Shown in pieces: positions 12,698 to 55,506 of a stretch of 64,000 nucleotides of DNA. Numbering within the stretch: the stretch's first letter is position 1; the number at the start of each line of letters is the position of its first letter. The DNA lies in the NCBI GenBank assembly GCA_963716745.1, contig OY970320.1, forward strand, positions 3,072,001-3,136,000. Reading direction: 5' to 3'. Source of the stretch: an uncultured Gemmatimonadaceae bacterium. GTDB lineage: Bacteria > Gemmatimonadota > Gemmatimonadetes > Gemmatimonadales > Gemmatimonadaceae. The translations under genes and the position numbers were made by a program. Under the pieces are notes generated by a model. The model searched no databases. It was not told where the DNA came from and saw nothing but the letters and a program-made list of their open reading frames with translations.

Positions 12698-12750
12698 GCG
12701 TCACAGCCATTAAAGTTAAGCGCGCAGAAGGGGTTATGCAACTCGTCCGA

Positions 12751-12863: not shown

Positions 12864-12875
12864 CGTCGTGAACAG

Positions 12876-12946
12876 TTGCCCCCGGTGGATTCGAACCACC
12901 ATTACCGGATCCAAAGTCCGGAGTCCTGCCATTGGACGAGGGGGCA
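12876..12946 (-). tRNA. tRNA-Gln(TTG)
   Basis: Acceptor TGCCCCC/GGGGGCA, D arm, anticodon arm CCGGA-CTTTGGA-TCCGG, T arm GGTGG-TTCGAAT-CCACC; classic ispE-tRNA-Gln-prs position; CCA not encoded. Confidence 0.97.
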
Positions 12947-12994
12947 GCAGCCTGCGGAAGTTAGTGCCGCTGGTACAGCCACTCAAGCACGAAC

Positions 12995-38026: not shown

Positions 38027-38090
38027 TGTCTCATCGTGGCTTGGAGTGAGCCAACAACTTAACGCGTGCGTGGGCTCAGCGCGCAGGGCC

Positions 38091-38218
38091 GGCGGGCGGC
38101 GGGCTCCGCGCCGGCGGCGGACAGCTCGAACCGCTTCGAGCCTCGCGCACACTGCGCGCGAGTCTCTCGCTTCTCGCTGACGCCGCCTCTGCGGAGCCCG
38201 CCGCCCGCCTTGGGATCG
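38091..38218 (-). repeat. Structured intergenic repeat copy A (divergent)
   Basis: Core AGCGAGAGACTCGCG..CGCGAGGCTCGAAGCGG on minus strand; perfect 19-bp outer stem 38091-38109/38191-38209. Confidence 0.9.
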
Positions 38219-38371
38219 CCGCGCTCTGAATGCGCGCGGTCGATGCGCTCGCGCTGCCGGCGGCGTGCGCCGTGACCGATCCATGCGCGCTCGCTGCCCC
38301 CGTCGCCGCGACGGGCTCGCCGCTCACTTCCCGCACGGGCATGATGCGGTCGGGCCGCGGGTGGTCGAACG

Positions 38372-38506
38372 CGATCGACGTCAAGGAGCGGGGTGCCGGG
38401 GGCGTAGCCGCGATAGCGAAAAGCGAGAGACTCGCGGCAGTATCGCGAGGCTCGAAGCGGTTTGAGCGAAAGCGGCCAAGCCCCCGGCGGCCCCGCGACC
38501 GGCGGC
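38372..38506 (+). repeat. Structured intergenic repeat copy B
   Basis: GCCGCGATAGCGAAAAGCGAGAGACTCGCG..CGCGAGGCTCGAAGCGGTTTGAGCGAAAGCGGC. Confidence 0.95.
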
Positions 38507-38603
38507 ACAACGATCTCGGCCTTGAACGCCGAATGACCCAACCCGCATTCTTATAGCGCGGGCGCGCTATCGCGCGTCCGCGAACTCATGGCGGAGCGAC
38601 CGC

Positions 38604-40557
38604 ATGGCTCAGTACGTGCGACTCACGAAACCAATGGTGCGCGTGAACGGGGAACTACGCGAAGCCACGTGGGACGAGGCGCTCGACCGCGCCGCGAACG
38701 GCTTCCGCACTATCCGCGACCGCGACGGCGGCGATGCGCTCGGGATCTTCTCGTGCTCCAAGGCGAGCAACGAGATGAATTTCGTCGCGCAGAAACTCGC
38801 CCGCATCGCGTTCGGCACGCACAACATCGACAGCTGCAACCGAACGTGACACGCACCTAGCGTCGTCGGTCTGGCGACGGTGTTCGGGGCAGGCGGAGGC
38901 ACGAGCTCCTACCGCGAGGCGGAGGAGACGGACGTGATCTTCCTCTGGGGCGCGAATCCCCGGGAGAATCACCCCATCTTCTTCCACCACGTGCTGAAGG
39001 GCGTGCACAATGGCGCGCGCCTGTACGCCATGGATCCGCGCCGCACCTCTACCGCCGCGTGGGCGCACCGCTGGCTCGGCCTGAACGTGGGCAGCGATGT
39101 CGCGCTCGCCAACGCCATGGGTCGCGTGATCATCCACGAGGGACTCGCGAACACCAAGTTCATCGAGCACGCCACTTCCGGCTTCGAGGCGTATCGCAAG
39201 CGCGTCGAGTCGTACACGCTGGAGCGCGCCGAGAAGCTCACGGGCGTTCCGGCCGTCGACATCCGCGACGCCGCGCTCGCCTACGCGCGCGCCGACCGCG
39301 CGATGATCTGCTGGACGCTCGGCATCACGGAGCACCACAATGCCGTCGACAACGTGCGCTCGCTCATCAACCTCGCGCTGCTCACCGGTCATGTCGGCCG
39401 CTACGGCTCTGGGCTCAATCCGCTGCGCGGGCAGAACAACGTGCAGGGCGGGGGCGACATGGGCGCGATCCCAAACCGCCTGCCGGGCTTCCAGGACATC
39501 CTCGATCCCGCGGTGCGCGAGCGGATCGACAAGATGTGGAACATCAAGATGAAGCCCACGATCGGCATGCACATGACGCAGATGTTCGAGGCGATGCACA
39601 AGAAGAAGCTCAAAGGCCTTTATGTGATCGGCGAGAATCCCGCGCAGAGCGAGGCCGATCAGCATCTCGCGCATGAATGTCTCGAGGGACTCGAGTTGCT
39701 GGTCGCCCAGGACATCTTCCTCACGCGCACCGCGCAGATGGCGCACGTGGTGTTCCCCGCGGCGTCCAGCTGGTGCGAGTCGGAAGGCACGGTCACGAAC
39801 TCCGAGCGCCGCGTGCAGCGCGTGCGCAAAGCGCTCGAGCCGCCCGGCGATGCGCGCGACGACATGTGGATCATCGCGCAGATCGCCAAACGGCTCGGCC
39901 ACGATTGGGGCAGCCGACGGGCGAGGGCGTGTGGAACGAAGTGCGGGCGGTGGCGCCCGAGATGTTCGGCGGCATGTCCTACGCGCGCCTGGAGGCGGAG
40001 CACGGACTGCAGTGGCCGTGCGCGAGCGAATCGGATCCCGGCGCGCAGTTCCTGCATGCGCGGCTGTGGGCCGAGCCGATGACCACGGCGCGCGCTCCCT
40101 TCGCCGCGCTGGACGACGAGCCGCCGGTGGAGATGCCCGACGACGAGTATCCGTTCCAGCTCACAACGGGGCGCCGCCTCGAGTCGTATAACACCGGCGT
40201 GCAGACGGGCGGCTACGATTCACCGCTCCATCGCGGAGAATCGCTCGATCTCTCGCCCGAGGATGCGAAACGGCTTCGTCTCGGAGACGGCGATGCCGTG
40301 CGCATCACCTCGCGGCGCGGCAGCGTCGTGGCGCCGGCGCGCATCTCGCCGGCGATGCGCCCCGGTCTCGTCTTCATGACACTGCATTTCCAGGACGACG
40401 TCCGCGTGAACCTGCTCACGATCGATGCGACGGATCCGCAGTCCGGCACCGCCGAGTTCAAGGCATGCGCGGTGAAGCTGGAACCGGTGAGGAAGAAGAG
40501 CGCTGCGAAGGCATCCGCCAAGGCGAAGAAGGAAGAAGAGCCACCACCCGCCGCTAG
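38604..40557 (+). CDS. Selenocysteine-containing formate dehydrogenase catalytic (Mo/W-bisPGD) subunit lacking the N-terminal Fe-S domain; apparent frameshifts near 39910 and 40540
   Basis: NIDSCNRT-TGA-HAPSVVGL in frame; LRGQNNVQG; GTVTNSERRVQ; LTTGR; AEFKACAV. Confidence 0.9.
38847..38883 (+). promoter_or_regulatory. In-frame UGA (Sec) and bacterial SECIS element
   Basis: TGA 38847-49; 11 nt later stem CGTCGTC/GGCGACG with loop GGTCT, as in the E. coli fdhF SECIS. Confidence 0.88.
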
Positions 40558-40568
40558 AGGAGCACGCA

Positions 40569-42461
40569 TTGGATCTGCATTTCGGCACGGCGGAGGCGAC
40601 GCTCGAGGAGCGCGAGCGCGGTGGATGCGTTGCTCGGACCGCCGCAGAGCGGATGGGACGGAGGTGAACGCGTCGCCGCACGCGACACCCGCGTGGCCGA
40701 CGGCGGACTCTCCTATCACGGCGAGCGTACGCAATTGCTCCCGGCGCTGCGCGCGGTGCAATCGCGCTGCGGTTGGATCAGCGAGGGCGCGCTCACGTAC
40801 ATCTGCCATGCGTCTGAACGTGCCGCCCGCCGAAGCGTACGGCGTGGCGACGTTCTACGCGCTGCTGTCCACCACGCCGCGGCCCAAACGCATGCTGCAC
40901 GTGTGCGACGACATCGCGTGCAAGACGCGCGGCGCCGACGCGCTCATCGCCGCGCTCGAGAAGAAGGCGGGGCCCGCGGCGCATCACTCGCCGAACGGCG
41001 ATCACGCGCATGTGAATGCGAGCGGCGCCTCGTGGCTGCGCAGTCCGTGCCTCGGACTTTGCGATCGCGCGCCGGCGGCGTTCTTGCAGGTGGCCGGCGC
41101 GAAGCCGCAGGAGACGCTCGCGGGCGATGTGACGGAGAAAGAATTGATCGCGATGCTCGGCGGCACGCACAAGGCCAAGCCCCTCGCGATGCCCGCGATC
41201 CCGCAGCGAGGACAGAAGGATCTCCGCCTCCTCGCTCGAGTCGGCGTCGTGGACCCGTCGAGCCTGGACGACTACCGCGCGAGCGGCGGCTACGGCGCGC
41301 TGCGCCGCGCCTTCGAGATGGGCGCGGAGGCCGTCATCCGCGAGGTCACCGAGTCCAAGCTCGCGGGCCGCGGCGGCGCCGCGTTCCCCACCGGCCGCAA
41401 ATGGGATGCGGTGTCGAAGCAAACGGCGCGCCCGCACTATCTCATCTGCAACGCCGACGAATCCGAGCCCGGCACCTTCAAGGACCGCGTGCTCATGGAG
41501 GGCGATCCGTTCGCGATCATCGAATCGATGACGATCGCCGCTTTCGCCACCGGCTGCGAGCGCGCGTTCATCTACATCCGCGGCGAATATCCGCTCGCCA
41601 CCGCGCGACTGCAGCACGCGATCGACACCGCGCGCGCACACGGCATGCTTGGGCCCAACGTCATGGGCCACGGCTTCGCGCTCGAGATCGAGATCCGCCG
41701 CGGCGGCGGCGCGTACATCTGCGGCGAAGAGACCGCCATCTTCAATTCCATCGAAGGCTATCGCGGCGAGCCGCGCAACAAGCCGCCCTTCCCGGCGGAG
41801 AGCGGCGTGTTCCGCAAGCCGACGTGTGTGAACAACGTCGAGACGCTCGCGAACATCCCCTTCATCGTGCTGAACGGCGGCGCCGCCTTCGCGGCCACGG
41901 GAACCAAGGAGTCCACCGGCACGAGGCTTTTCTGCCTCTCCGGCGCCGTCGAGCGGCCCGGCGTGTATGAAGTGCCCTTCGGCGCCACGCTGCGCGATCT
42001 CCTCGCGCTCGCCGGCGGCCCGCGCGGCAAGCGTCCGCTCAAAGCCATTCTGCTCGGCGGCGCGGCCGGAGTGTTCGTGCGTCCCGACGAGCTCGACATC
42101 CCGCTCACCTTCGAAGGCGCGCGCGAAGCCAAGGTGACGCTCGGCTCCGGCGTGATCATGGCGTTCGACGACAGCACCGATATCACGCAGGTCATCCGGC
42201 GCATCGCGTCGTTCTTCCGCGACGAATCGTGCGGCCAGTGCGTGCCGTGCCGCGTGGGCACCGTGCGCCAGGAGGAGGCGTTGCACCGCCTCGCCTCCAA
42301 GCGCACGCGCGGTGGCGTCGCGGCCGAGCTCGCGCTGCTCGACGAGATCGGCACGGCCATGAAGGATGCGTCGATCTGCGGACTCGGCCAAACGGCGTAC
42401 AGCGCGGTGGAGTCGGCGATGAAGCGACTCGAATCTCTACAGCGCGGAGGGCGCCGTATGA
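40569..42461 (+). CDS. Fused NuoE-NuoF-like NAD(H)/FMN-binding subunit of FDH (apparent frameshifts near 40615, 40808, 42430)
   Basis: GAGGAG RBS and TTG start MDLHFG; YGVATFY, CDDIAC, CLGLC; GRGGAAFPTG.KW, NADESEPGTFKDR, YICGEET, ESCGQCVPCRVG, SICGLG. Confidence 0.88.
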
Positions 42462-43405
42462 CCGCGCTCGTCCAGCTGCGCACGCCCAAGCGCACCGTCG
42501 CGCTCACGATCGACGGCGAGCAGGTGTCCGTGCCGGAGGGTTCGACGATCCTCGACGCGGCGGCCGCGATGGGCAAGTCGCTGCCCACGCTCTGCTATCT
42601 CGAAACACTGCACCCGGTGAACGCGTGCCGAGTGTGCGTGGTGGAGCTCGAGGGCTCACGCGTGCTCGTGCCCAGTTGCTCGCGCAAGGTGGAAGCGGGA
42701 ATGGTTGTGCGTACCAACAGCGAACGCGTGAAGCACAGCCGCAAGATGGTGCTCGAGTTCCTCGCGTCGAGCGTGGACCTCTCCACCACGCCGCACGTCT
42801 CCGAGTGGCTCGATGAGTACGACTGCCGGCCCGCGCGCTACGGTCCGCCGGCGCCCGCGGCCCAGGACGGCGCACGCGACGAGGTGCACACCGGCCATCA
42901 CGATGCGCCCGATCCCGCGTTCGCGGCCACCGTGCGTCAGCCGCTCAAGAACGACAACGAGCTCTACGTGCGCGATTACGGCAAGTGCATCCTGTGCTAC
43001 AAGTGCGTGGAAGCGTGCGGCACCGATTTCCAGAACACCTTCGCCATCGCCGTCGCGGGCCGTGGATTCGACGCGCGCATCTCCACCGAGTTCGCCACCC
43101 CGCTGCCGGGCTCGGCGTGCGTGTACTGCGGGAATTGCATCGCCGTGTGCCCCACGGGTGCGCTGATGTTCACGAGCGAACACACCAAGCGCGCCGACGG
43201 CACATGGGACGAATCGAAGCAGGCACAGGTGGACACGATCTGTCCGTACTGCGGTGTGGGCTGCACGCTCACGCTGCACGTGCAGGACAACGAGATCGTG
43301 AAAGTGACATCGCCCTTCGACGTGTCGATCACCGAGGGGAATCTCTGCATCAAGGGACGGTTCGGCTGGCGCTACGTGCAGTCGCGCGGCGACGCGCGCG
43401 CATGA
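42458..43405 (+). CDS. 2Fe-2S/4Fe-4S subunit equivalent to the N-terminal part of FdsA/NuoG-type alpha subunits
   Basis: PTLCY..NACRVC..C; CILCYKCVEAC; CVYCGNCIAVCP; C-terminal TICPYCGVGC...NLCIKGRFG; GGAGG RBS and ATGA overlap. Confidence 0.92.
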   Translation: MTALVQLRTPKRTVALTIDGEQVSVPEGSTILDAAAAMGKSLPTLCYLETLHPVNACRVCVVELEGSRVLVPSCSRKVEAGMVVRTNSERVKHSRKMVLEFLASSVDLSTTPHVSEWLDEYDCRPARYGPPAPAAQDGARDEVHTGHHDAPDPAFAATVRQPLKNDNELYVRDYGKCILCYKCVEACGTDFQNTFAIAVAGRGFDARISTEFATPLPGSACVYCGNCIAVCPTGALMFTSEHTKRADGTWDESKQAQVDTICPYCGVGCTLTLHVQDNEIVKVTSPFDVSITEGNLCIKGRFGWRYVQSRGDARA

Positions 43406-44254
43406 CGCTGCCCCCCGAGCTCACGCCGGGGCACCCGCTCTTCGGACTCGGCTACGCCAAGCCGCAACTCGAGCGCGAATTCGTGCGGCTCGATGAGGAC
43501 GGCGCGACGAAGGAGCATTCGAGCGTCGCGGAGGAAGTCCCCGTCGCGCTCGTGTACAACCAGCGTCCGCACGTCGTGATGATGGCGACGCCGGCCGACC
43601 TCGAAGATTTCGCGACGGGCTTCACCCTCTCCGAGGAGATCGTCGCGCGCGCGAGCGACATCGCGAGCGTGCGCGTGCAGCCATACAGCCAGGGCGTGGA
43701 GATCCAGATCACCATTCCTGCGAGCGCGGCGGCGGCGCTCGAGCAGCGCGGCCGCCAGCTCGTGGGACAAACGGGCTGTGGACTCTGCGGCGTGCAGACC
43801 ATCGCCGATGCACTCCGCCCCACGCGCGCCGTGACCGCCAAGTGGACGCTCCACGCGAGCGCAGTCTGGCGCGCCGAGGGCGCGCTGGCCGCGCGACAGG
43901 AACTGAACCAGAGCACCGGCGCCGTGCACGCCGCCGCGTGGGCCACGCGCGAGCGGCGAACTCACTGTCGTGCGCGAAGACGTCGGCCGCCACAACGCGC
44001 TCGACAAGGTGACCGGCGCCCTCGCGCGCGCCGGCACCGACGCGAGCGCGGGCTTCCTGGTGCTCACGAGTCGCGCGAGCTACGAATTGGTTCAGAAAGC
44101 CAGCGTCGCCGGCGTTCCCATTCTCGCGACGGTCTCGCGACCCACGGGTCTCGCGATCAGACTGGCCGAGGCTGCAGGGATCACGCTCATATCGTTGTTG
44201 CGCGGTTCCAGCGCGAACGTATACTCGCACCCCGAACGCGTGAGTAGTGCGTAG
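43402..44254 (+). CDS. fdhD: Formate dehydrogenase accessory sulfurtransferase (apparent frameshift near 43952)
   Basis: VAEEVPV, MMATPADLEDFA.GF, CGLCG, TGAVHAAA, REDVGRHNALDK, SRASYELVQK. Confidence 0.95.
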
Positions 44255-44285
44255 GTCGCGCGCGCGTTGGTCATCGCGCGAAGAC

Positions 44286-44417
44286 GGCGGGCGGCGGTTC
44301 CCGGCTAGGCCGCTTTCGCTCGAACCGCTTCGAGCCTCGCGGCTGGACCGCGCCGCGAGTCTCTCGCTTCTCGCTGCCGCGGCTGCGCCGGGATCCGCCC
44401 CCCGCCTCTGGATCGCG
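44286..44417 (-). repeat. Structured intergenic repeat copy C
   Basis: Reverse complement of consensus, with TTCGAGC variant. Confidence 0.93.
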
Positions 44418-44493
44418 AACCGCGCGCAGCCCGCGAATGCGAGACCGGATCGCCGCGCTCTCCCGCTCGTTATGCGGCCATTTGGCGATTCAA

Positions 44494-44633
44494 GATCATC
44501 GCAGGGAGCGCCGCTGGCGTCGGCGCAGCCGCGGCAGCGAAAAGCGAGAGACTCGCGCGTAGTATGCGCGAGGCTCGAAGCGGTTTGAGCGAAAGCGGCC
44601 TAGCCGACGCCGGCGGCGCGACCGCGGCGCGAT
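44494..44633 (+). repeat. Structured intergenic repeat copy D
   Basis: Consensus core; outer stem GCGCCGCTGGCGTCGGC/GCCGACGCCGGCGGCGC. Confidence 0.95.
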
Positions 44634-44643
44634 GTTCTAGGCC

Positions 44644-45744
44644 CTATGACAGCATCGCCGAGCCGAGATAAACAGCGAAGATCACGATGAGCACCGTGCC
44701 TTGGAGGATCGTCGTCTTCCCCGTGCGCAGCGCGAGTGCGGTCACGAAGAGCGAGAGGACGAGCAGCACCGTGCTCTTGCCGTCGATGCCGAGCGTGAGC
44801 GTGAGTCCGGTCGCGAGCGACACGATCGCGACTGCGGGGATCGTCAGCCCGATACTCGCGAGCGCGCTGCCGAGCGCGAGGTTGAGACTCGTCTGCAAGC
44901 GGTTCTGGCGCGCGGCGCGCACCGCGGCGATCCCCTCCGGCATGAGCACGACGCCAGCAATGATCACGCCGACCAGCGCCGGCGGCGCGCCCGCGCGCGC
45001 GACCGCGTCCTCGAGCGTGGGCGCGATCTTCTTCGCGAGCAGCACCACGGCCGCGAGACACACGAGCAGCAATGTCGCGCTGAGCGCGGTCGCGCGGTTC
45101 GACGGCGGCGGCGCGTCCACCGCGACGCCGCTCGGCGATGCCTCGAGGAAATAGCCGCGGTGGCGCACCGTCTGCACCAGCACGAAGGTCCCGTACAGCA
45201 CCAGCGAGACCAGCGCGATGAACGCGAGCTGTCCCGGCCCATACACCGGACCGGCCACGTGCGTGTCGTAATTGGGAAGGATGAGCGTGAGCACCGCGAT
45301 CGTCGCGAGCGTCGTGAGCGCGCCCGTGACGCCATCGATGCCGAACGTCTGCTCGCGATGCCGCATGGCGCCCACGAGCAGGCACATCCCGACCATGCCG
45401 GTGAGGATGATCATGAGCGTCGCGAACACCGTGTCGCGTGCGAGCGCGGCGGTGGCCGCGCCGCCCGCGATCATGAGCGACACGATGAGCGCGACCTCGA
45501 TGAGCGTCACCGCGATCGCGAGCACGAGCGTCCCGAAGGGCTCGCCCACGCGATGCGCTACCGCCTCGGCATGGTGCACCGCGGCGAGCACCGCTCCCAC
45601 GAGCGCGAGCGCGAGCACCACTACGAACCACGCGCCCGTGATCGCCAGCGCCGCCACTATCATCCCCCACGCCACCACCGGCGCCGCGATCGTCCACTTC
45701 GGCAAATGCGCGACACCGGGCGTCGTCTCTTGGTCTTCAGCCAT
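44644..45744 (-). CDS. chaA: Ca2+/H+ antiporter (ChaA/CaCA family)
   Basis: AVHHAE.VAHRVGEPFGTLVLA.AVT.IEV, PEG.AAV.AA, NLALGSALASIGLTIP. Confidence 0.9.
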   Translation of the reverse strand: MAEDQETTPGVAHLPKWTIAAPVVAWGMIVAALAITGAWFVVVLALALVGAVLAAVHHAEAVAHRVGEPFGTLVLAIAVTLIEVALIVSLMIAGGAATAALARDTVFATLMIILTGMVGMCLLVGAMRHREQTFGIDGVTGALTTLATIAVLTLILPNYDTHVAGPVYGPGQLAFIALVSLVLYGTFVLVQTVRHRGYFLEASPSGVAVDAPPPSNRATALSATLLLVCLAAVVLLAKKIAPTLEDAVARAGAPPALVGVIIAGVVLMPEGIAAVRAARQNRLQTSLNLALGSALASIGLTIPAVAIVSLATGLTLTLGIDGKSTVLLVLSLFVTALALRTGKTTILQGTVLIVIFAVYLGSAMLS

Positions 45745-45863
45745 GCGAGATAACCTAGCGCGTCAGGTGGATCATTGCAGTCAGCGCGCGCGAAGCGACC
45801 AGACCGCCGATCGCGCCTCATCGCATGGGTTGCGGCAATAGCACCCCGCCGAAACCATTGACG

Positions 45864-46004
45864 CGATCACGATCAGGGAGCGAGCGAGCGGTCGGCGCAG
45901 CCGCGATAGCGAAAAGCGAGAGACTCGCGGCGGTATCGCGAGGCTCGAAGCGGTTTGAGCGAAAGCGGCCTAGCCGACCGCTCGCTCGCGACCGGCCGCG
46001 CGAT
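45864..46004 (+). repeat. Structured intergenic repeat copy E
   Basis: Consensus core; perfect outer stem GCGAGCGAGCGGTCGGC/GCCGACCGCTCGCTCGC. Confidence 0.95.
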
Positions 46005-46196
46005 GACCCCGAACCTTGCAAGCAATTCGGGGTTATACTAGATACAAGAAGAATCGGACCGGTGCGGTCGACCGGTCCCCCGGACGTGCGAGGCTTGTCT
46101 CGCAAGTCGAGGGCGCAGGCGAGGCTCCCAGCGATGGGGCCGGCCGGCGCCCTTTTTCATTCGTGCACCTTCACCTCTCAACGAGGCGATCGATAC

Positions 46197-47975
46197 ATGC
46201 GAGTCTTCACCAAGGAACTCACCGCGATCGCGCTGGCGGCCGCCGTCCAGATGACGCTGCCGCCGTCGCTCTACGCCGATCCGCCGGCGCGCGTGGCGCG
46301 CATCAGCTTCGTTACGGGCGACGCATCGCTCCGCCATGGTACGTCGGGCGACTGGATGGCGTTCATGATGAACTATCCAGTGACCACCGGCGACGAACTC
46401 TGGGTCGACGCCGGCGGACGCTCGGAACTCCACTTCGGCTCGTCCGCGCTCCGGCTCGGCGAGCGTACGGCACTGTCATTCGTGCTGCTCGAGGACGATC
46501 GCGTCGTGCTGCGCCTCACGCAGGGCGAGATCTCGCTGCGCGTGCGCTCGCTCGATGAGAGCGATCACATGGAGATCGAGACGCCGACATCCACCGTGTC
46601 CGTCATGCGCCCCGGGGACTATCGGCTCACCGTGGACTCGTTGGGACTGAGTACGCTGGTCGCCGTGCGCGTCGGCGATGCGCAGGTCGCATCGTCCGGG
46701 GGAACCTATGAAGTGCTCGCGGGTCACGTGGGCCTCGCGTCGAGCGATCCGAATACGCCGTTCGATGTCCGGCCGCTGCCGGTGGAGCCGGCCGATGAAT
46801 TCGACGCCTGGGCGCAGTCGCGGGCGCGCGCCGAGGATGCGTCACCATCGGGCCGCTATGTGTCGATGGAGATGACGGGGTACGAAGCGCTCGACGCATA
46901 CGGACATTGGGAGGAGACGCCCGATTACGGCGAGGTGTGGGTCCCGTCGAACGTCGGCGACGATTGGGCGCCGTATCGCGTGGGCCGCTGGGTGTGGGTG
47001 GATCCGTGGGGATGGACGTGGATCGATGCGGAGCCGTGGGGCTTTGCGCCGTTCCACTATGGACGATGGGCGCGCTACGGCGGCGTATGGGTCTGGGCGC
47101 CGGGCGTGCGCGTCGCGCGGCCGGTGTACGCGCCCGCGCTGGTGGCCTTTGTTGGGGGAGGGACGTGGAGCGTGTCGGCCCGGTTCGGCCCGGCGGGAGG
47201 CGTCGCGTGGTTCCCGCTGGCGCCCGGCGAACCGTGGGTGCCGTCATATCACGCGAGCACGACGTACGTGAGGAACGTGAACATCACGAACGTGCACGTC
47301 ACGAACATCAACGTGACGAACGTGAACGTGCAGAACATCCACTATAAGAACGTGCAGGTCGCCGGCGCCGTGACGGCGGTGCCGCGCGAGACCTTCGTCT
47401 CCGCGAAGCCGGTGCGCGCTGCGGCGGTGCCGCTGCAGCCGCAGGACGTACGGCAGATCCAGGTGGTGGCGCACGCGCCGCCGGTGACCCCGAGCCCGGC
47501 GAGCCGGATCACTCCGGTCTCCGCGCATCCCGCCGCGCCGCCGCCACGCGTTGCGACGCACATCACGGAGTTGCACGCGGAGCCTCCACCGCACCCGGCG
47601 CCGGCAGCCGCACCGGCCGTTCCGCCAACACGAATGAACGGCCCGGGCACCGCCGTACGCGTGCCCGTGGATCCGCGTCCGCGCGCCGACATCATCGCGC
47701 AGCAGCGCGCGGTGCAATCACGCCAGGTACTCGAACACGCGCAGCTGCAGGACAAACATCTCCAGGAAAAAGCGAGCGCGCCGAAGGGCCAAGTGCCGCC
47801 CCAGATGCAGTCGCGCCAGCAGAAGGAGACCCAGACGATGGAAGCGCGCCACGCCACTGAGAACGCGCCCAAGCACCCGGTGTCGCCCGCGAAGGTAGCG
47901 CCGCCACCGAAACCCGTGCCGGCGCACGCGCCGCCGCCCAAACCGAAGGAGGAGCCGAAGCCGCCGACGCGTTAG
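46197..47975 (+). CDS. FecR-like/DUF6600 domain exported protein with Pro-rich tail
   Basis: Signal peptide then DPPARVAR; WAPY..GRWVWVDPWGWTWID.EPWGFAPFHYGRW; YAPALVAF; WFPLAPGE. Confidence 0.88.
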   Translation: MRVFTKELTAIALAAAVQMTLPPSLYADPPARVARISFVTGDASLRHGTSGDWMAFMMNYPVTTGDELWVDAGGRSELHFGSSALRLGERTALSFVLLEDDRVVLRLTQGEISLRVRSLDESDHMEIETPTSTVSVMRPGDYRLTVDSLGLSTLVAVRVGDAQVASSGGTYEVLAGHVGLASSDPNTPFDVRPLPVEPADEFDAWAQSRARAEDASPSGRYVSMEMTGYEALDAYGHWEETPDYGEVWVPSNVGDDWAPYRVGRWVWVDPWGWTWIDAEPWGFAPFHYGRWARYGGVWVWAPGVRVARPVYAPALVAFVGGGTWSVSARFGPAGGVAWFPLAPGEPWVPSYHASTTYVRNVNITNVHVTNINVTNVNVQNIHYKNVQVAGAVTAVPRETFVSAKPVRAAAVPLQPQDVRQIQVVAHAPPVTPSPASRITPVSAHPAAPPPRVATHITELHAEPPPHPAPAAAPAVPPTRMNGPGTAVRVPVDPRPRADIIAQQRAVQSRQVLEHAQLQDKHLQEKASAPKGQVPPQMQSRQQKETQTMEARHATENAPKHPVSPAKVAPPPKPVPAHAPPPKPKEEPKPPTR

Positions 47976-48072
47976 CTCAACCGGCCGTCAGCTTCGTGTT
48001 CGAGAAAGCCGGCCGGCCGCGCACCCAGTGAGTTGCGCGGCCGGCCGCCTTCGCGGTCAGCCGAGCAGGCGA

Positions 48073-48212
48073 GATCGACGGCAGGGAGCGCCGCCGCCTC
48101 CGGCGCAGCCGCGATAGCGAAAGCGAGAGCCTCGCGCGCAGTGTGCGCGAGGCTCGAAGCGGTTTGAGCGAAAGCGGCCTAGCCGGAGACGGCGTCGCGA
48201 CCGAGCGCGCGA
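48073..48212 (+). repeat. Structured intergenic repeat copy F
   Basis: Consensus core between convergent genes. Confidence 0.95.
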
Positions 48213-48220
48213 CCGAAGTT

Positions 48221-48991
48221 CTACTCGCGTGGCTCCGATCGATAGATGGGCCCGAGCTTCTCAACGGCCGACGTGCGCAGGAGCCGGAAGAACAGCGCGC
48301 GCAATTCGAAATGCAGGTTCTCGATCATGTCCTCGCGCTCCTTCCAGAAATCGTCGTCGATGCCGAGCTGGCGGCGGCACTCGATCGAGAGCGTGAGCCC
48401 GTTCACATCGGGATCCGGATCGATGAACGCGCCCATCGGGTTCGGCTGGATCTCCACCACGCGCGAATACGTCTCGTCGTTCAGCTCGACGCGCAGGTGC
48501 ATGCCGCGCTCGGGCACCGGCTCGCCGTTCATGCGCACATCCACGCGCAGTCCTTCCAGCTGCCGCTCCGGCATCTCGCGCAGCACGTTCACGAACTTCA
48601 GCGAGATGCGCTCCACCGCGCCCACCATCTTGCTCGCCCGCAGCGCGTCGGTGAGCGCCTCGATGCGGTCGCGCACTTCGTCCCACCCGGGATACGGCGC
48701 CACGAGCCGCAGCCACACCGCCTGATCGCCCACCATGACCGCCGCGAGGGGACTGAACTGACGGATCCGCGGCTGGTATCGCATCTCTTCCTGCGTCTTC
48801 CGGAATTGCGCGGGCGCTGCCGACACCGGGATCGACTCCGAGCGCGGATACGCCTCGGTGAGCACGGTGCGGAAATACGCCGGCAAACCCTCGGCTTTGT
48901 CGCCGCTCAGCGGCTTGAAGCGCAGCTCGAACGTGGCCTCCTCGATCGGCGGCCGCGCGAGTTCCTGCGGGAGAAGATATTTGTTGGACAC
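48221..48991 (-). CDS. TIGR04255-like protein
   Basis: N-terminal L.RPPIEEA.FELRF; YPGW..; RISLKFVN. Confidence 0.75.
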
Positions 48992-49041
48992 GCCAAGAAC
49001 CTATCCCGCGCCCGCGGGTCGTGCCAGCCGCGCGGCTGCGT

Positions 49042-49725
49042 TCAGCGGGGCCCGAGCCGCGCGCGCAGTGCCCGCTCGCCGGCGGGGGAGACCATGACCG
49101 CGCGCGAGCCGCGATGCGGCCGCGCCCACCCGAGGGCGTAGAGGCGCCGGAGCATCGCGGCGCCGAGCGCGCCGGCGAGATGATGGCGGCGCGCACTCCA
49201 GTCGAGACACGCGAGACACAGCGGCCGCCGGCTCCGCTCGAGCGCCGCGAGGTCGATCCCCAGTTCGAGAAATGCTCTCGCGCCGGATTCGGTGAGTCTC
49301 ACGGTGGTGCCCGCGGACCGCAGCCATCCACGCTGGTGCATGCCGTCGTACACGAGCACGCCGAACTCTCCCGCCAGATGGTCGTAGCACACGCGCGCGC
49401 GGCGGAGCGCCGGGTCGGTCGGGCCGGAGTCCACGCGTACGGCACCCGCGCGATGTGCGAGCGTGCCGAGGCGTTCGATCACGGACGCGACGTCGTGCGA
49501 CGCGACGCGGAAATAGCGGTAGCGGCCGGCGTTCTCCACGGCCACGAGGTGCGCGCGCTCCAGCTTCCCGAGATGCGAGCTGGCCGTCGGCTTGGAAACG
49601 CGCGCGGCGCGCGCGAGTTCGGTGGCGGTGAGCGCGCGGCCGGACATGAGGGCGAGCAGGATCGTGGCGCGCGCGCGGTCGCCGATGAGCGCGGCGATCG
49701 CCGCGATGTCCGGGGTGTCGTCCAT
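49042..49725 (-). CDS. ArsR-family winged-helix transcriptional regulator
   Basis: [51 protein letters not shown]. Confidence 0.92.
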
Positions 49726-49747
49726 GGTTCCATTGTAGTCGAACCAT
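49724..49747. promoter_or_regulatory. Palindromic operator between ArsR regulator and NIPSNAP gene
   Basis: ATGGTTC-N10-GAACCAT overlapping the regulator start codon. Confidence 0.6.
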
Positions 49748-49776
49748 TAGCGAGAGGCAATGCGCCATCATCCGGC

Positions 49777-50200
49777 ATGGACCCACTCGACCCGATCGTT
49801 CCCCGCCGCGGGTTCCTCGGCCGACTCGCCGCCGGCGCGGCCGCGCTGGCCGGCATGCCTCTCTCTTCGCGCGGAGCCGCCATGCAAGTCACCTGCTTCA
49901 TCCGCTATGAGATCGACCCCGTGCAGCGCGACGCGTTCGCCGAGTATGCCGACCGGTGGGCGAAGATCATCCCGCGCTGCGGCGGCGATCTCATCGGGTA
50001 TTTCCTGCCGTACGAGGGGACGAACTACGTAGGCTTCGCGCTCATTTCGTTCAACTCTCTCGCGGCATACGAGCAATACCGCGCGCGGCTGCGCGGCGAT
50101 GCCGATGCGCAAGCGAACTTCGGTTTCGCTCAGTCGAAGCGGTTCATCCTGAAGGAGGAACAGGACGTTCCTGCAGGGAGTGCCGAGCACGATGAAGTGA
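49777..50200 (+). CDS. NIPSNAP family protein (alternative start 49882; apparent frameshift at ~50161)
   Basis: [47 protein letters not shown]; shifted frame ends [17 protein letters not shown]. Confidence 0.88.
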
Positions 50201-50214
50201 CTTACCTTTCGCCA

Positions 50215-50703
50215 ATGGCCGAGGAAACTCCGGACTATCGCGCGCTGCCCAAGCGCGCCGCGTATGATGCGCTCGCCGCGAACGTGCGCGCCGTGCTCGA
50301 TGGCGTGCGCGATCCCATCACCGCGATGGCGACGGTGAGCGCGCTCGCGCACCACGGCTTCGGATTCCTGTGGACGGGTTTCTATCGCGTGGTCGAGCCC
50401 GGTCGGCTGCTGCAGGTCGGCCCGTACCAAGGCACGCTCGGCTGCATCGATATCACATTCGGGCGTGGCGTGTGCGGCACCGCGGCCGCCGAGCGACGCA
50501 CCGTGATCGTGCCCGACGTGAACGCGTTCCCGGGTCACATCGCGTGCGACGCCCGCGCGCGTTCGGAGATCGTGGTTCCCGTATTCGATGCATCGCGCGC
50601 ACTGATCGCGGTGCTCGACGTGGACAGCGATCGCGTGGGCGCCTTCGACGATGACGATCGCGCGGGATTGGAGCGCGTGGTCGAGTGGTTCGCGCAGCCA
50701 TGA
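50215..50703 (+). CDS. msrC: GAF domain protein, free methionine-(R)-sulfoxide reductase-like
   Basis: [40 protein letters not shown]. Confidence 0.85.
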
Positions 50704-51518
50704 GCCTCATCTCACCGCGCGCGCAGCGTTTTCGCGAACTCCACGCGTCGGGCTGCTTCGTGATGCCCAACCCATGGGACCCGGGCAGCGCGCGCCTCCT
50801 CGCGCAACTCGGATTCCCGGCGATCGCCACCACGAGCTCCGGATTCGCGTGGAGCCGAGGCCGCTCGGACAATCACGTGCCGCTGCGCGAGATGCTCGAT
50901 CATCTCCGGTCCATCGCGGCTGCGGTGGATATTCCCGTGAACGCCGATTTCGAGGGCGGCTTCGCCGTGGGGCCGGTGGAGGTCGCGCGGAACGTTGGGT
51001 TGGCCGCCGTGACGGGCGTCGCCGGCCTTTCGATCGAGGATTCCACCGGCGATCCGGCGGACCCGCTCTTCGATTTCGCGCTCTCGGTGGATCGCATGCG
51101 TGCGGCGCGCCGCGCGATCGACGACGTGGGCACCGGCGTCGTGCTCACGGGGCGCTCCGAGGGATTCATCGTCGGCCGGCCCGATCTCGACGAGACCATT
51201 CGGCGCCTCGTCGCGTACGCCGGCGCCGGCGCGGATTGTCTCTACGCGCCCGGCATCAAGACGAAGGCGGAGATCGCCGCGGTCGTGAAGGCCGTCGCGC
51301 CGAAGCCGGTGAATGTCCTCGTCGGCGGCGATTTCACCACCGTCGCCGACCTCGCCGCGCTCGGCGTGCGCCGCATCAGCACCGGCGGCGCGCTCGCGCG
51401 CGCGGCGTGGGGCGCGTTCCTCGCGGCCGCGCGCGAGATCGAAGGGCAGGGGACGTTCGGCGCACTCACGCGCGGCGTGCCCTTTGACGAGATCGATCGG
51501 TCGTTCGCAGATTCGTGA
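50700..51518 (+). CDS. Isocitrate lyase/PEP mutase family protein
   Basis: [37 protein letters not shown]. Confidence 0.92.
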
Positions 51519-51519
51519 C

Positions 51520-52134
51520 ATGATGCACGCCTACAGTTTCAGCGAGAACGTGCGCCGCGTGTTGGCGGAGGCTCGCGACGTGGCGTCGAGCCGGCGCCAG
51601 GAGTTCGTGATGCCGGATGACATGTTCGTGGCGCTGTCGCGCGCAACGAAATGCAGCGCGGTCCGGGTTCTCCAGGAGATGGGCGTCGATGTGCTCGGGA
51701 TCGCGGGGAAAGTGGAGGCTCGGAAGACGGTCGGTATTGCGTCACGGCCGACCGGACCCGATTTGCCCTACACGACGCGCGCGAAGACGGCGCTCGAGCT
51801 CGCGATGAAGGAGGCGGGCGAGTTGCAGCATAGCTTCGTCGGCACCGAGCATCTCCTGCTCGGCTTGATCAGCGAGGGGCAGAGCGATGCGGCAAAGGCT
51901 CTCCTTGCTGCGGGGGCGACGCTTGAGCGCACGCGCGCCGCCGTCGCGGACGCAGCGCTGCGGCGTGAGCCTGATGCACCCGGCATCGAGATCGGCGTTG
52001 GCCGGACCAGCACGGCCTCGCCGCTCAGGAGTGTCACGATCCTCGTGGAGCACGCCGATGGCCGTCTCGAGGCGGTACGCTTCGACCGCATCCAGGATGC
52101 GCTGCAGTTCTTGTTGAAGAACGCTGGATCCTGA
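51520..52134 (+). CDS. Clp protease N-terminal domain protein
   Basis: FSENVRRVL..A; LPYTTRAK.ALELAM.EA..L.HSFVGTEHLLLGL; no ATPase domain. Confidence 0.85.
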   Translation: MMHAYSFSENVRRVLAEARDVASSRRQEFVMPDDMFVALSRATKCSAVRVLQEMGVDVLGIAGKVEARKTVGIASRPTGPDLPYTTRAKTALELAMKEAGELQHSFVGTEHLLLGLISEGQSDAAKALLAAGATLERTRAAVADAALRREPDAPGIEIGVGRTSTASPLRSVTILVEHADGRLEAVRFDRIQDALQFLLKNAGS

Positions 52135-52139
52135 ATGAC

Positions 52140-52601
52140 ATGCTCCGTCTAACGCTCGCGGTACTCCACCTGCTCGCCCTCGCGATCGGGTTCCGCGCGG
52201 TGATCGCGCGGGGGGTCGCGCTCCGTGAGCGCGTGACCGCCGATTCGCTCAAACGCGCCTTCCGCGCCGACAGCGAGTGGGGGATCGCCGCGCTGCTCTG
52301 GATCTCCACCGGCCTCTGGCGCTATCTGGCCGGCACCGAAAAGATGACGAACTACTATAACAAGAACGAGCTGTTCCGTACCAAGATGGCACTGCTCGTG
52401 CTCATCCTCGCGCTCGAGATGTGGCCGATGATCACGCTCATCCGCTGGCGCATTGCGCTCGGCCGCGGCGGGGCGCCCGCCAACGTCGTTTCCGAGAGCC
52501 GGGCACGCCGGATCGGGGCGATCAGCTTCATCCAGGCGGCGCTCGTGGTGCTCATGGTGTGCGCGGCCGTAGGCATGGCGCGCGGCTTCGGAACGCACTG
52601 A
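52140..52601 (+). CDS. DUF2214 family membrane protein
   Basis: LHLLAL, AD..WGIAA, EK...YY..N..F..KM, MARGFG. Confidence 0.85.
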   Translation: MLRLTLAVLHLLALAIGFRAVIARGVALRERVTADSLKRAFRADSEWGIAALLWISTGLWRYLAGTEKMTNYYNKNELFRTKMALLVLILALEMWPMITLIRWRIALGRGGAPANVVSESRARRIGAISFIQAALVVLMVCAAVGMARGFGTH

Positions 52602-52663
52602 TGCTTGACGGAGCGGCCGCTCCGCATAACACTGCAGGCGTCCTCGCTCCCGGGAGCGCCCCC

Positions 52664-53317
52664 ATGTCCGGCCGCCTCACGATCGGTTCCACCCTGCTCA
52701 TTGCCGCAGCATCTGCCGCGTTCGCGCAAACGCCCCCCGTCACGCGCGCGCCGACCGCGTCCGCTCCGGCGACCGTGCACACGCCTCCGTCGCCGGCGTC
52801 CATCGCGCCCGCGCCTTCCGCGGTACAGCGCCAGAAGTTGCCGGATCTCACGTTCGCGTCGGTGAATGTGAACAACATGAATCACGAAGTGAGCGTGCGC
52901 ATGACGACGCCGCTGATCGTCGTCGACCACGTCTTTCCGCCTCAGTCGACCTCCGGCGCGAGGCAGCCGGCGGGCAGCCCGTGCAATCGCTCTTTCACCT
53001 TTCCCGTCGTGCTCTCGGTGCGGAACATCGGCAATGCCGACTTCGTGCCGCTCAGCTCGGCGCAGGCCGTGGGCCTGGACATTGGCACGTTCAATGCCGC
53101 GAAGGATCTCATCAAGCTCACGCCCAATCAGGCCCAGACGATGAGTTGGAGCGTGACCCTGCCGCCGGGGAACTACACGCTCAGCGCCTTCATCGACACG
53201 CACGGCCAGGTCGCGGAATCGAACGTGAACAACAACAAGCTGTCGTGGCCGCTCAAGGTGAGCTGCGAAGTCCGCTCCAGCGCGGCCGCCGCGCCGGCGC
53301 CGATCAAAAAGCCCTAG
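52664..53317 (+). CDS. Secreted CARDB-like domain protein
   Basis: Signal peptide; LPDL; VRNIGNA; PGNYTL.A.ID...QVAESN.NNN. Confidence 0.8.
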   Translation: MSGRLTIGSTLLIAAASAAFAQTPPVTRAPTASAPATVHTPPSPASIAPAPSAVQRQKLPDLTFASVNVNNMNHEVSVRMTTPLIVVDHVFPPQSTSGARQPAGSPCNRSFTFPVVLSVRNIGNADFVPLSSAQAVGLDIGTFNAAKDLIKLTPNQAQTMSWSVTLPPGNYTLSAFIDTHGQVAESNVNNNKLSWPLKVSCEVRSSAAAAPAPIKKP

Positions 53318-53378
53318 GCGCTCGGCGCTAGGCGCTAGCGGGCGCTGACGGAGTTGCCCGGACAGCTCGCGCGCCCCT

Positions 53379-53519
53379 CGATCGATGGCAGGGAGCGGCG
53401 AGGCCTCCGGCGCAGCCGCGATAGCGAAAAGCGAGAGACTCGCGGCAGTATCGCGAGGCTCGAAGCGGTTTGAGCGAAAGCGGCCTAGCCGGAGGCGTCG
53501 CCGCGACCGGCCGCGCGAT
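53379..53519 (+). repeat. Structured intergenic repeat copy G
   Basis: Consensus core between convergent genes. Confidence 0.95.
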
Positions 53520-53522
53520 AGG

Positions 53523-55054
53523 TCATCGCGCGCTCGCCGTAGAACGCGGACGAGATCCTTCTTGAGCTGCGCGAGCACCGGTTGGTGCAGATACATCATG
53601 TGCCCACTCTCGTAGTACCCGTACGTGATGTTCTTCTCGAGCGACGCGTCGATGCCCATGTGCTGCAGCGTGTACTCGGTCTCGAAAAACGGCGTCGCGA
53701 AATCGTAGTAGCCATTCGCTGAGAAGATGCGCAGGTACGGATTCTGGCTCATCACCTCGCGCAGATCCTCGCTCACGTTCGGGATCGGCCAACGATCGCC
53801 GGCCACGCGGTGGCGGTTGTCCCAGTCGTCGCCCACCTCCTTGCTCCCCTCGGGGAGATAGGGGATCCCGGGATCCCAGCGCAGGTCGCTCTTGATGTAC
53901 GACATGAACGCGGCGACGAATGCCCCCGACGTCGCCGCGTCGGCGGCGTCGTACTCAGTCGTCTCGCCGGCCGCGTCGTGATCGATGCCCATGAAGCGCG
54001 CGTCGAGCCTGCCCACGGTGCGCTCGTCGGCGCGCAGCAGCTCCTTCTGGAAGCGCTCGGGCGTGACGCGCAGGTGAGCCTTCTTGATGAACTCCACCGA
54101 CAACCCGGTGAAGTGGTGCAACTGCTCCGCCACACTATCGCGCTCGGCCGCACTCAGGTGATTGCCTTGCACGAGCGCGTGCTGGTACGCACCGATCGCG
54201 AAGGCGCGGGCTTCCACGAGGAACGGCGCCAATTCCGCCGGCTGCTGCGGCAGCTTCTTGTGGTACCACGCCGTCGCGGCCATGGTCGGGATGTTCAGCT
54301 GGTACGTGATGTCGAGGCTGTTCGGCGGGCCGCCGAAATCGACGTATGAGTTGAGCCACGACGAGATGAGCACCAAGCCGTTGAGCGTCACGCCGCGCTC
54401 CTGAAGGTGGTTCGCCAGGCCGGCCGCGCGCGTCGTGCCGTACGATTCGCCCATGAGATACTTGGGCGAGTTCCAGCGATTGAACACTGTCATGTAGCGA
54501 ATGATGAAGTCGCCGAAGGATCTAATGTCGGCGTCGGTGCCGTAGAAATCCTTGCCCGTGCCTTTGCCCACGATGCGACTGTAGCCGGTTCCCATCGCGT
54601 CGATGAACACGAGATCGCTCTTGTCGATCAGGCTCGAGCCGTTGTCGGCCAATGAGTACGGCGCGGGCGGCGTGAATTGCGGCTCGTTCGTCGCGACGCG
54701 CACCGGCGCGAACGATCCCATGTGCAGCCAGATCGTCGCCGAGCCGGGACCGCCGTTGAAGATGAACGTCACGGGCCGCGTGCGCGGATCGGCGCCGTCC
54801 TTCGTGTACGCCACGTAGAACATGCTGCCGATCGCCTGGTTCGAATCGTTCTTGATGAGCAGCGTGCCCGGACGCGCGGAGTACTTGATCACCTGGCCGT
54901 CGATGGTGATCGATCGCGGCGTGACCACGCTCGACTCGGCGGGAATCGGCTTCGCGGCGGAGTCCGCGGCGGGCTTGGCGGGGGCTTGAGCGGAAACGCT
55001 GCAGACGAACGCGGCGCTGAGAGCGCAGAGTGCGCCGAGGGAACGATGCGACAT
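53523..55054 (-). CDS. Peptidase S10 family serine carboxypeptidase (apparent indels in last ~10 codons)
   Basis: Signal peptide; FNGGPGS, GTGYS, GESYG, GYYDFATP, YESGHMMY. Confidence 0.93.
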
Positions 55055-55126
55055 GAATGAGGCTCCAGGTGACCGAGTGACTTGCAGAGTGCGTGGTAAT
55101 ATCCGCCCGGCGCACGTGCGGTCAAC

Positions 55127-55262
55127 CGCGCCGCCGGTCGCGGCGACGGGTCCGGCTAGGCCGCTTTCGCTCAAACCGCTTCGAGCCTCGCGATGGTGCC
55201 GCGAGTCTCTCGCTTTTCGCTGCCGCGGCTGCGCCGGACCCGTCGCCGCTCCCTGTCGTCGC
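55127..55262 (-). repeat. Structured intergenic repeat copy H
   Basis: Reverse complement of consensus; perfect outer stem GCGGCGACGGGTCCGGC/GCCGGACCCGTCGCCGC. Confidence 0.95.
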
Positions 55263-55361
55263 ACCAGCGTCGCGCGAAGTCGTTCAGTTTGCGTAGCGAG
55301 TCGCCGCCGAGGTGCCCGCTGTTATTTCGATGAGCGTGAAGATCAATAGTTCGCGGCCCCA

Positions 55362-55504
55362 CGATCGATGTCAGGGAGCGGTGCCGTCCCGGCAGAGGCG
55401 CCCCCGCGCGTAGCGAGAGACTCGCGCGCAGCATGCGCGAGGCTCGAAGCGTGTAAGCGCGAGGGCGCCGGCGCCGGGATGGCGCCGCGACCGGCGGCGA
55501 GATG
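55362..55504 (+). repeat. Structured intergenic repeat copy I (divergent)
   Basis: CGATCGATGTCAGGGAGCG...AGCGAGAGACTCGCG..CGCGAGGCTCGAAGCG...CGCGACCGGCGGCG. Confidence 0.88.
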
Positions 55505-55506
55505 AC

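Follow-up and report, generated by a model that had tools for sequence, protein, structure and literature searches.

An uncatalogued ~142-nt hairpin repeat of Gemmatimonadaceae and its possible role at transcript boundaries

The stretch of 64,000 nt analysed here (the window) comes from the genome of an uncultured Gemmatimonadaceae bacterium (assembly GCA_963716745.1, contig OY970320.1, positions 3,072,001 to 3,136,000) and carries nine copies of an intergenic repeat with long pairing arms. What kind of element is this, which of its strands folds, and why does it lie where it does? The repeat is an uncatalogued element of soil Gemmatimonadaceae, ~142 nt long, which forms one long hairpin, and its copies are real. 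As a joint reading, to which we give a probability of roughly 45%, we propose a family-restricted, rod-shaped hairpin repeat that spreads, is selected for its fold and would act, as RNA, as a module at transcript boundaries.

Copies, fold and covariation

The nine copies listed by a first-pass annotation, made from the letters of the window, were confirmed in position and strand by mechanical repeat finding (Table 1). The size of ~130–140 bp given there had to be corrected to ~142 nt, with limits in the host genus running from GATCGA to GCGCGATGA. A profile built on the nine copies returned 35 rows in the host genome (3,292,296 bp in one contig, 66.9% G+C), which came down to 30 full and 2 partial copies (at 909990 and 2490372) after removal of opposite-strand echoes. 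A covariance model recovered the same 30 full copies and the partial one at 2490372, and none further; its scores for the host-genome copies were 75–158 bits on the sense strand vs 31–58 bits on the opposite strand. Three subtypes can be told apart. Type 1 is the commonest and is a derivative peculiar to the host genus, type 2 (e.g. copy I) is the form common to other genera, and type 3 is represented by copy A and in part by copy C, a type 1/3 hybrid. The consensus drawn up in the first-pass annotation fits type 1; copy I is type 2, and copy A (partly also C) belongs to type 3.

The alignment, submitted to RNAalifold, gave one long imperfect hairpin, here called the rod, and single-sequence folding gave the rod in 29/30 copies, with a three-way alternative in one. 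Followed from its ends towards its apex, the rod comprises weak outer pairs, a GG/CC step beside tandem G-A/A-G, the stem P1 (16–19 bp), a 3x3 internal loop, the stem P2, purine-rich internal loops set apart by GC/GC and GAG/CUC pairs, and a variable apical hairpin. Its end is closed by the pairing of 5'-GGGAG with CGACC-3'. The fold of copy G has an energy of −87.4 kcal/mol (z = −7.7, with 0/200 shuffles as good) and that of copy I −99.3 kcal/mol (z = −7.2), and their opposite strands reach z = −4.4 and −4.9, respectively. The multi-branch fold proposed in the first-pass annotation was rejected on these RNAalifold and single-sequence results in favour of a rod with conserved internal loops, and with it went the mini-hairpins GCGAAAGC and GCGAAAAGC, which in the supported fold are cross-strand GC pairs flanking the internal loops.

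Pairing is maintained through sequence change. In an unfitted MAFFT alignment of the 30 full host-genome copies, which omits both partial ones, 87.2% of the cells pair (76.9% in shuffles and 32–44% when the partners were slid), both-side changes occur at 27/49 pairs, and the covariation score is 0.254 vs 0.094, a value reached by 0/500 shuffles. An alignment of 35 copies from other genera, which was fitted to the model and is biased towards structure by it, gave 88.9% pairing cells (61.1% in shuffles, 31–50% slid), both-side changes at 39/48 pairs, including 17/17 in P1 and 5/5 in P2, and a score of 0.558 vs 0.128 (again with 0/500 shuffles as high). The stems P0, P1 and P2 and the apical stem are fully covarying. 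The stem covariation reported from the nine window copies persists in larger alignments, as do its particulars, namely a P1 of 16–19 bp that differs among copies and nevertheless pairs, and a P2 that switches in copy A, to GGCGGCG/CGCCGCC.

Around these stems, whose sequences differ wholly between genera with pairing kept, lies a core that is essentially invariant across genera: GCGUAGC(G/A)AGAGAC on the 5' side of the apical hairpin and GGCUCG(A/C)NGCGUGUAAGC on its 3' side. Within the 5' half of the core, GCGAGAG and CTCG show no difference among the 30 aligned host-genome copies. The apical hairpin itself varies in sequence and length, with insertions of up to ~45 nt. One internal loop covaries in a non-Watson-Crick manner, showing G with A in some copies and A with C in others.

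The two strands are not equivalent. Folded as RNA, the sense strand has the lower energy in 29/30 host-genome copies (summed energies −2770 vs −2497 kcal/mol) and in 30/33 copies from other genera. The cells of P1 hold 25 G-T/T-G vs 5 A-C/C-A combinations in the host genome and 32 vs 9 in other genera, some of them common by descent, so that the independent events are fewer than these counts. The conserved loops are purine-rich on the sense strand. From these loops, the tandem G-A pairs, the non-canonical covariation and the finding of no mobilising enzyme (see below), we infer that the folded strand is RNA.

Distribution, spread and orientation of the copies

A BLAST search with copy G against 41 related genomes gave matches in 5/5 genomes of the genus (25–29 in the three better assemblies) and, outside it, only chance-like pieces of 24–36 nt. 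When prokaryotes were scanned for an exact pattern, with each species represented by one genome, 58 loci were found, 56 of them in uncultured Gemmatimonadaceae or Gemmatimonas metagenome-assembled genomes (MAGs); the other 2 are single actinobacterial matches, probably due to chance. A first covariance model (R1) detected the element in 15/151 genomes and 10/77 genera of the family. A second one (R2), derived from other genera, detected it in 4/31 family genomes and in 0/119 genomes representing 11 further families of the phylum. The element is thus confined to Gemmatimonadaceae within the genomes searched. The core pattern also occurs in more than 124 soil-type metagenome contigs; of 80 that were retrieved, 61 encode protein sequence that matches the host genome over at least 80 residues (median identity 60%). 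Window positions 43800–48400 are represented in soil and rhizosphere DNA metagenomes, with small shares, and no RNA data set was found for them. The core pattern gave 0 matches in viral contigs, on which grounds a phage origin was rejected.

The view of the first-pass annotation that the element was undescribed holds with respect to Rfam. Searched against Rfam 15 at the gathering score, the whole window returned a tRNA only (the gene at 12876–12946, minus strand), and seven host-genome loci returned nothing at E values up to 1. For nine loci taken from other genera and from metagenomes, the sole match on an element was a long-hairpin one far below threshold, MIR1437, at 36.9 vs 168 bits. A literature search on repetitive extragenic palindromic elements in Gemmatimonadetes gave nothing relevant.

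The sites occupied differ between genera. In other genera, the best host-genome matches of the neighbouring genes lie 3 to 424 kb from the nearest copy, and more than 10 kb away in 38/42 cases; a seven-copy cluster in one relative (G129) is syntenic with 589–613 kb of the host genome, where the host has no copy. Copies also cluster locally, 7/20 host-genome sites falling within 35 kb, to which 0/5000 random placements attained. Different sites in different genera together with local clustering indicate that the element spreads. At the single filled-versus-empty site, where the relative G005 has a doublet-bearing 445 nt and the host genome 29 nt, no clear target duplication was seen, the flanks being only 81–85% identical, which renders exact ends and target duplication unreadable.

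Settled copies, in turn, are conserved. Between orthologous copies of two species of the genus, whose DNA is ~90–95% identical to the window over long aligned blocks, the identity is 95.5% vs 74.4% for the 100 nt on the 5' side (13 comparisons), and locus-specific P1 sequences are retained. On these sequence comparisons, each settled copy is shown to be under purifying selection on the fold of one strand. Selection of this kind had been put forward in the first-pass annotation and is borne out by the covariation, the strand asymmetry and the conservation of orthologous copies above their flanks.

Where two copies share a site they face each other. Ten of the 20 host-genome sites hold a single copy; the 10 sites with two copies have them in the order minus then plus (10/10), the heads facing across 56–199 nt. 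The same head-to-head arrangement was found in 23/23 two-match loci of the prokaryote pattern scan, in 26/26 non-overlapping adjacent pairs of the pattern-scan loci, many of which are orthologous, and in 13/13 pairs on metagenome contigs; pairs in other genera behave likewise. The two partners of a doublet resemble each other no more than non-partners do (0.714 vs 0.695; 1270/5000 random sets as high) and often belong to different subtypes, and the 10 doublet spacers are unrelated, with only two short similarities among them (88% over 25 nt, and 13 nt). With partners no closer than non-partners and spacers unrelated, the doublet is not a copied unit, and the orientation rule must come either from function or from the mode of insertion.

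Some arrangements stand apart from these doublets. The partial copy at 909990–910052 of the host genome is a partial tandem duplicate of the element's 3' half, directly after the full copy 909839–909981; beside their non-overlapping pairs, the MAG loci hold five overlapping same-strand ones that look like partial tandem duplications too, and pairs of this sort are present in the relatives' loci L034, L048, L057 and L080. On one metagenome contig (L156, 2127–2313), two half-elements are fused head to head into one large palindrome, which apparently arose by deletion between doublet members. The full-length single copies of the host genome all lie on the plus strand of the assembly (10/10). They occur on both sides of the GC-skew extremes (~0.28 and 1.88 Mb), and a link to replication direction was rejected for this reason.

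Closely related species differ structurally at several copies. Between the orthologues of copies A and B, the relative G002 (L028, ~4600–6200) has a 1.6-kb insert bounded by two direct copies, which is absent from the host genome and from G004. From its translations, inspected by eye, we take it to encode an extracytoplasmic function sigma factor, possibly an anti-sigma factor, and a periplasmic protein. The host copy B looks like a recombinant of the two copies that flank this insert. The host genome and G002 have the C/D doublet where G004 (L026, ~11368–14487) has, between the FdhD and Na/Ca-exchanger genes, a reading frame of 1039 codons, presumably, on inspection by eye, a multi-GAF histidine kinase gene; the corresponding sites in G005, G003 and G001 were too diverged to inform. 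Copy F is mostly gone from G002 through an internal deletion which left the element's 3' end, and this site was rejected as a clean empty site. Copies of the element mark places at which gene cassettes were gained or lost between species.

A different hairpin was met 8 kb past the end of the window, at 3144383–3144534 of the host genome. It is near-perfect, ~150 nt long (−120 kcal/mol) and made of short repeated units. G002 (L030) carries a type-1 element exactly where the host has this hairpin, and by eye both lie against the stop codon of the right-hand gene.

Gene boundaries and rival explanations

Genes were called with a codon-usage caller of our own (3092 open reading frames, ORFs, covering 85.7% of the genome). 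According to these calls, the 20 host-genome sites comprise 10 between convergent, 4 between divergent and 5 between co-directional genes, and 1 unreadable site; the convergent share of 10/20 compares with 14.5% of all intergenic regions genome-wide. For 20/30 copies a convergent gene lies on the 3' side of the element, its stop codon being at most 17 nt away in 14/17 readable cases, and in 10/30 copies a gene start is found 0–190 nt beyond the 3' end. Where the gene on the 3' side points away, a conserved promoter-like sequence, recognised by eye, stands between element and gene, with one match to the consensus. The usual 3' end of the element (GATGACC) resembles a −35 box. In the window, a promoter-like TTGACC-16-GATATT at 55098–55125 (minus strand), kept in G002 and G004, has a −35 that overlaps the 3' end of copy H.

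In the reading proposed here, the folded RNA strand would make the element a directional transcript-boundary module, that is, a barrier, a processing signal or a stability signal, probably read by a protein through its invariant loops. It would act on transcription running from the 5' head to the 3' end of the element. A gene or promoter flush against the 3' end would, on this action, be shielded, and two head-to-head elements would shield both neighbours of the intergenic region. A more specific version, which we regard as tentative and on balance doubtful, takes the element for a domesticated, protein-read, polar structured RNA, a portable one-way barrier or processing signal by which transcripts would be stopped or trimmed shortly before the next gene or promoter; from it would follow both that copies are flush at gene boundaries and that adjacent copies are head to head without exception.

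A number of observations weigh against the proposal. Its transcript-boundary part is read from sequence and predicted folds. The placement counts depend on gene calls from our own codon-usage caller, and three sites could not be read. The strongest covariation figures stem from the model-fitted alignment, those of the unfitted one being weaker, though still clear. The strand asymmetry is the same under DNA energy parameters (29/30); it shows that one strand folds and does not tell RNA from single-stranded DNA. Neighbouring genes are of every kind and indicate no pathway (gltX, formate-dehydrogenase-like, G6PD, purA, lipB). No conserved −35/−10 was found upstream of the element, nor does the rod lead into a U-tract on the sense strand. 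Finally, the mRNA of the abutting gene would itself carry the opposite strand of the element, so that an ordinary 3'-end hairpin fits at least as naturally as shielding.

The account that survives best beside it, in our view an unlikely one, holds the element to be selfish and akin to the doublets of repetitive extragenic palindromic (REP) sequences known as REPINs. The rod would be single-stranded DNA, read strand-specifically by a trans-acting nuclease or transposase (of HUH type or of an unknown family) which copies it to new intergenic sites; the loops would be the recognition points, and the stems would need only to pair. In its favour are the strand-specific fold, in which stems covary and unpaired bases stay fixed, and the asymmetry, which is seen under DNA parameters too. 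The turnover of sites between genera, the local clustering and the patchy spread over genera suit it as well, as does the different hairpin family that the host has at a site where G002 has the element. The inverted doublets recall those of REPINs (PMC3116915, PMC3337134).

It is the enzyme that such an account lacks. The one-contig host genome has no match to the Y1 HUH/RAYT (REP-associated tyrosine transposase) family (PF01797), TnpB (PF07282), the reverse transcriptase family RVT_1, IS110/Transposase_20 (PF02371) or DDE_Tnp_1 (PF01609). PF01797 was found in 3/15 element-bearing vs 34/136 other family genomes (the tally of 37 includes genome G054). The RAYT/HUH enzyme suggested in the first-pass annotation finds no match in the host and is not commoner where the element occurs, and no mobility gene was seen among two sets of 39 and 44 ORFs flanking copies. 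The host genome has four tyrosine-recombinase loci (~0.30, 0.51, 1.44 and 2.78 Mb), the nearest ~40 kb from a copy. Furthermore, selection for replication alone does not explain why orthologous copies are conserved far above their flanks, and doublet partners are no more alike than non-partners.

Distinctly unlikely, in our judgement, is an ordinary 3'-end hairpin on the opposite strand, i.e. a post-stop terminator without U-tract or an exonuclease block, a head-to-head pair then being two convergent genes each with its own hairpin. The placement counts lend themselves to it, with the enrichment of convergent sites, the convergent gene on the 3' side of 20/30 copies and the short distances to the stop in 14/17. 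So do the different hairpin filling the same post-stop site in the host genome and the opposite strand itself, which folds well (z = −4.4 and −4.9) and in type-1 copies offers a small GC hairpin followed by UUUU. This UUUU, however, is missing from the form common to other genera, and the opposite strand folds less stably in 29/30 and 30/33 copies. The G-U cells favour the sense strand, and on the opposite one the conserved loops would be pyrimidine-rich. Moreover, 10/30 copies face a gene start instead of a stop, and some head-to-head pairs stand between divergent or between co-directional genes. As for an intrinsic terminator, a GC-rich hairpin with a U-tract, all that was found is a 5-bp inner hairpin followed by UUUU on the opposite strand of type 1, and this candidate was rejected.

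Less likely again are independently transcribed small RNA genes with a promoter just upstream of the head, doublets being divergent pairs with a common promoter region. They would account for the sense strand as the favoured fold, for heads always facing across 56–199 nt, for the somewhat greater room on the 5' than on the 3' side of single copies, and for the closed end formed by 5'-GGGAG and CGACC-3'. The expected promoter fails to appear. Upstream of the head there is no conserved promoter-like block; the information content is near zero beyond the box GATCGATG.CA, which is itself missing in other genera, and of the 2 sites that a simple promoter scan gave in 19 kb, neither precedes an element head. 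Between species the sequence changes fastest in the 5' flanks, and one metagenome doublet, though fused and truncated, has no spacer at all.

A double-stranded DNA site, in which two conserved boxes would serve a nucleoid or regulatory protein or the repeat would extrude as a cruciform, is very improbable: two conserved boxes do lie on either side of a variable centre, and copies do cluster on the chromosome, but neither the 17 covarying P1 pairs nor the strand bias of G-T over A-C would be required of a duplex, and in a cruciform both strands would weigh alike. A decaying miniature inverted-repeat transposable element (MITE), its arms paired only by origin as terminal inverted repeats, has the gene-less palindromic form in intergenic DNA in its favour and is scarcely credible, since the outer stems are the most variable part and still paired through both-side changes, the orthologous copies are conserved above their flanks, the core is common to genera with wholly different stems, none of the four transposase families tested (PF01797, PF07282, PF02371, PF01609) has a match, and no clear target duplication was seen.

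Two further ideas were tried and rejected. Guide-like targets of P1 did not emerge, the 5' arms of 17/30 copies matching elsewhere in the genome (at most 1 mismatch) no more often than shuffles (mean 1.82 vs 1.63), and stop codons in all three frames showed no excess over shuffles as a feature of the element.

Features of the window, related repeats and implications

The copies of the window and the parts of copy G, which served as reference for the fold, are collected in Table 1. In addition, the 3' end of copy C lies 16 nt from the stop codon of a called ORF (43970–44254, plus strand) and 23 nt from the end of the FdhD-like ORF (42985–44247). Among the ORFs examined (39/73 of the window and 44/66 of those flanking copies), no recurrent neighbour gene family was found; the neighbours are housekeeping genes and others of various kinds.

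Table 1. Copies of the repeat in the window and structural parts of copy G (window coordinates).
Feature	Position	Strand	Remarks
Copy A, type 3	38076..38221	-	Left of head-to-head doublet A/B; 3' end faces gltX start
Copy B, type 1	38373..38513	+	Right of A/B doublet, 151-nt spacer; 3' end towards formate-dehydrogenase-like genes
Copy C, type 1/3 hybrid	44271..44417	-	Left of C/D doublet
Copy D, type 1	44494..44635	+	Right of C/D doublet, 76-nt spacer; 3' end 8 nt from Na/Ca-exchanger stop
Copy E, type 1, single	45865..46006	+	Between divergent genes
Copy F, type 1, single	48073..48215	+	Between convergent genes; 3' end 5 nt from stop codon
Copy G, type 1, single	53380..53521	+	Reference copy for fold
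Copy G, P1 5' arm	53395..53411	+	Partner 53488–53504
Copy G, P1 3' arm	53488..53504	+	Partner 53395–53411
Copy G, conserved core, 5' half (AGCGAGAGACTCGCG)	53430..53444	+	
Copy G, conserved core, 3' half (CGCGAGGCTCGAAGCG)	53452..53467	+	Every position at least 90% conserved in host genome
Copy H, type 1	55123..55264	-	Left of H/I doublet; -35-like TTGACC overlaps 3' end
Copy I, type 2	55363..55505	+	Right of H/I doublet, 98-nt spacer; 3' end 1 nt from MacB/FtsX permease stop

Three other observations concern genes between the copies. The formate-dehydrogenase-like gene at 38604–43405, in which molybdopterin, NuoE/F-like and Fe-S domains are fused, is divided between the overlapping frames 38880–40082 and 39677–43405; a frameshift, an error of assembly or the recoding of a stop could be the cause. 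Within a DUF6600-family gene (46197–47975), six overlapping 15-nt periodic repeats at 47251–47366 probably encode a five-residue protein repeat. An S10-peptidase-like open frame (52355–55264, minus strand) continues through copy G and over a CARDB gene on the opposite strand.

The general kind of element is best read as that of the structured repeats of the REP/REPIN, enterobacterial repetitive intergenic consensus (ERIC) and Correia class. REP sequences are palindromes of ~20–40 nt with a GTAG-type tetranucleotide at the 5' side. The unit here is, by contrast, a rod of 142 nt, and GTAG occurs only inside the core of the form common to other genera, its place being taken by ATAG or GCAG in type 1. 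REPINs, for their part, are inverted REP doublets (PMC3116915, PMC3337134). REP/REPIN-RAYT systems (PMC3116915, PMC3337134, PMC8266576) resemble the present element in that gene-less intergenic palindromes occur in tens of copies and in inverted, spaced pairs. Long persistence within a lineage and a recognition thought to need a folded single strand are further points of likeness. The element differs from REPINs in that its doublet partners and spacers are unrelated and its invariant part is an internal purine-rich core, and from REP/REPIN systems in general in that the host genome is without a RAYT and the family sample shows no RAYT association.

The ERIC sequence, or intergenic repeat unit (IRU), is an enterobacterial imperfect palindrome of 127 bp which forms one long hairpin, is intergenic and is thought to act in transcripts. 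The present element shares the approximate length, the imperfect palindrome, the single long hairpin and the intergenic position with it. It belongs to another phylum, has another sequence and shows cross-genus stem covariation around a fixed core; and whereas we know of no head-to-head rule for ERIC, adjacent copies here are always head to head. Correia elements, or Neisseria miniature insertion sequences (NEMIS), are 100–150-bp hairpin repeats of Neisseria that lie at gene boundaries, may have promoter-like ends and act on transcripts; their terminal inverted repeats are conserved, and they duplicate a TA target. The hairpin-forming repeat described here is likewise found at gene boundaries, but its outer stems vary and no duplication was seen. 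The attC sites of integrons have conserved R and L boxes at the base of the stem and stand in arrays of one orientation with an integrase nearby. Unlike these, the element combines a variable stem base with a fixed centre and mixed orientations, and no tyrosine recombinase lies beside a copy; for R-box motifs the judgement was made only by eye.

One element here combines textbook covariation about a core that does not vary with sites that turn over from genus to genus and with strong conservation at each of them; it is comfortably classed neither as a selfish repeat nor as a host RNA gene. The head-to-head rule, which has no exception, provides a testable constraint on any mechanism. Should an unknown enzyme move the element, a new mobilisation system would be indicated. 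If it is a polar RNA, it would represent a class of transcript-boundary elements new in kind, and its invariant loops GUAGCRAGAGAC / GGCUCGNNGCGUGUAAG would hold a new RNA motif. Soils abound in Gemmatimonadaceae, for which, to our knowledge, almost no non-coding elements have been described, and a polar boundary signal of this kind would be useful to annotate transcript ends in high-GC genomes that do without U-tract terminators.

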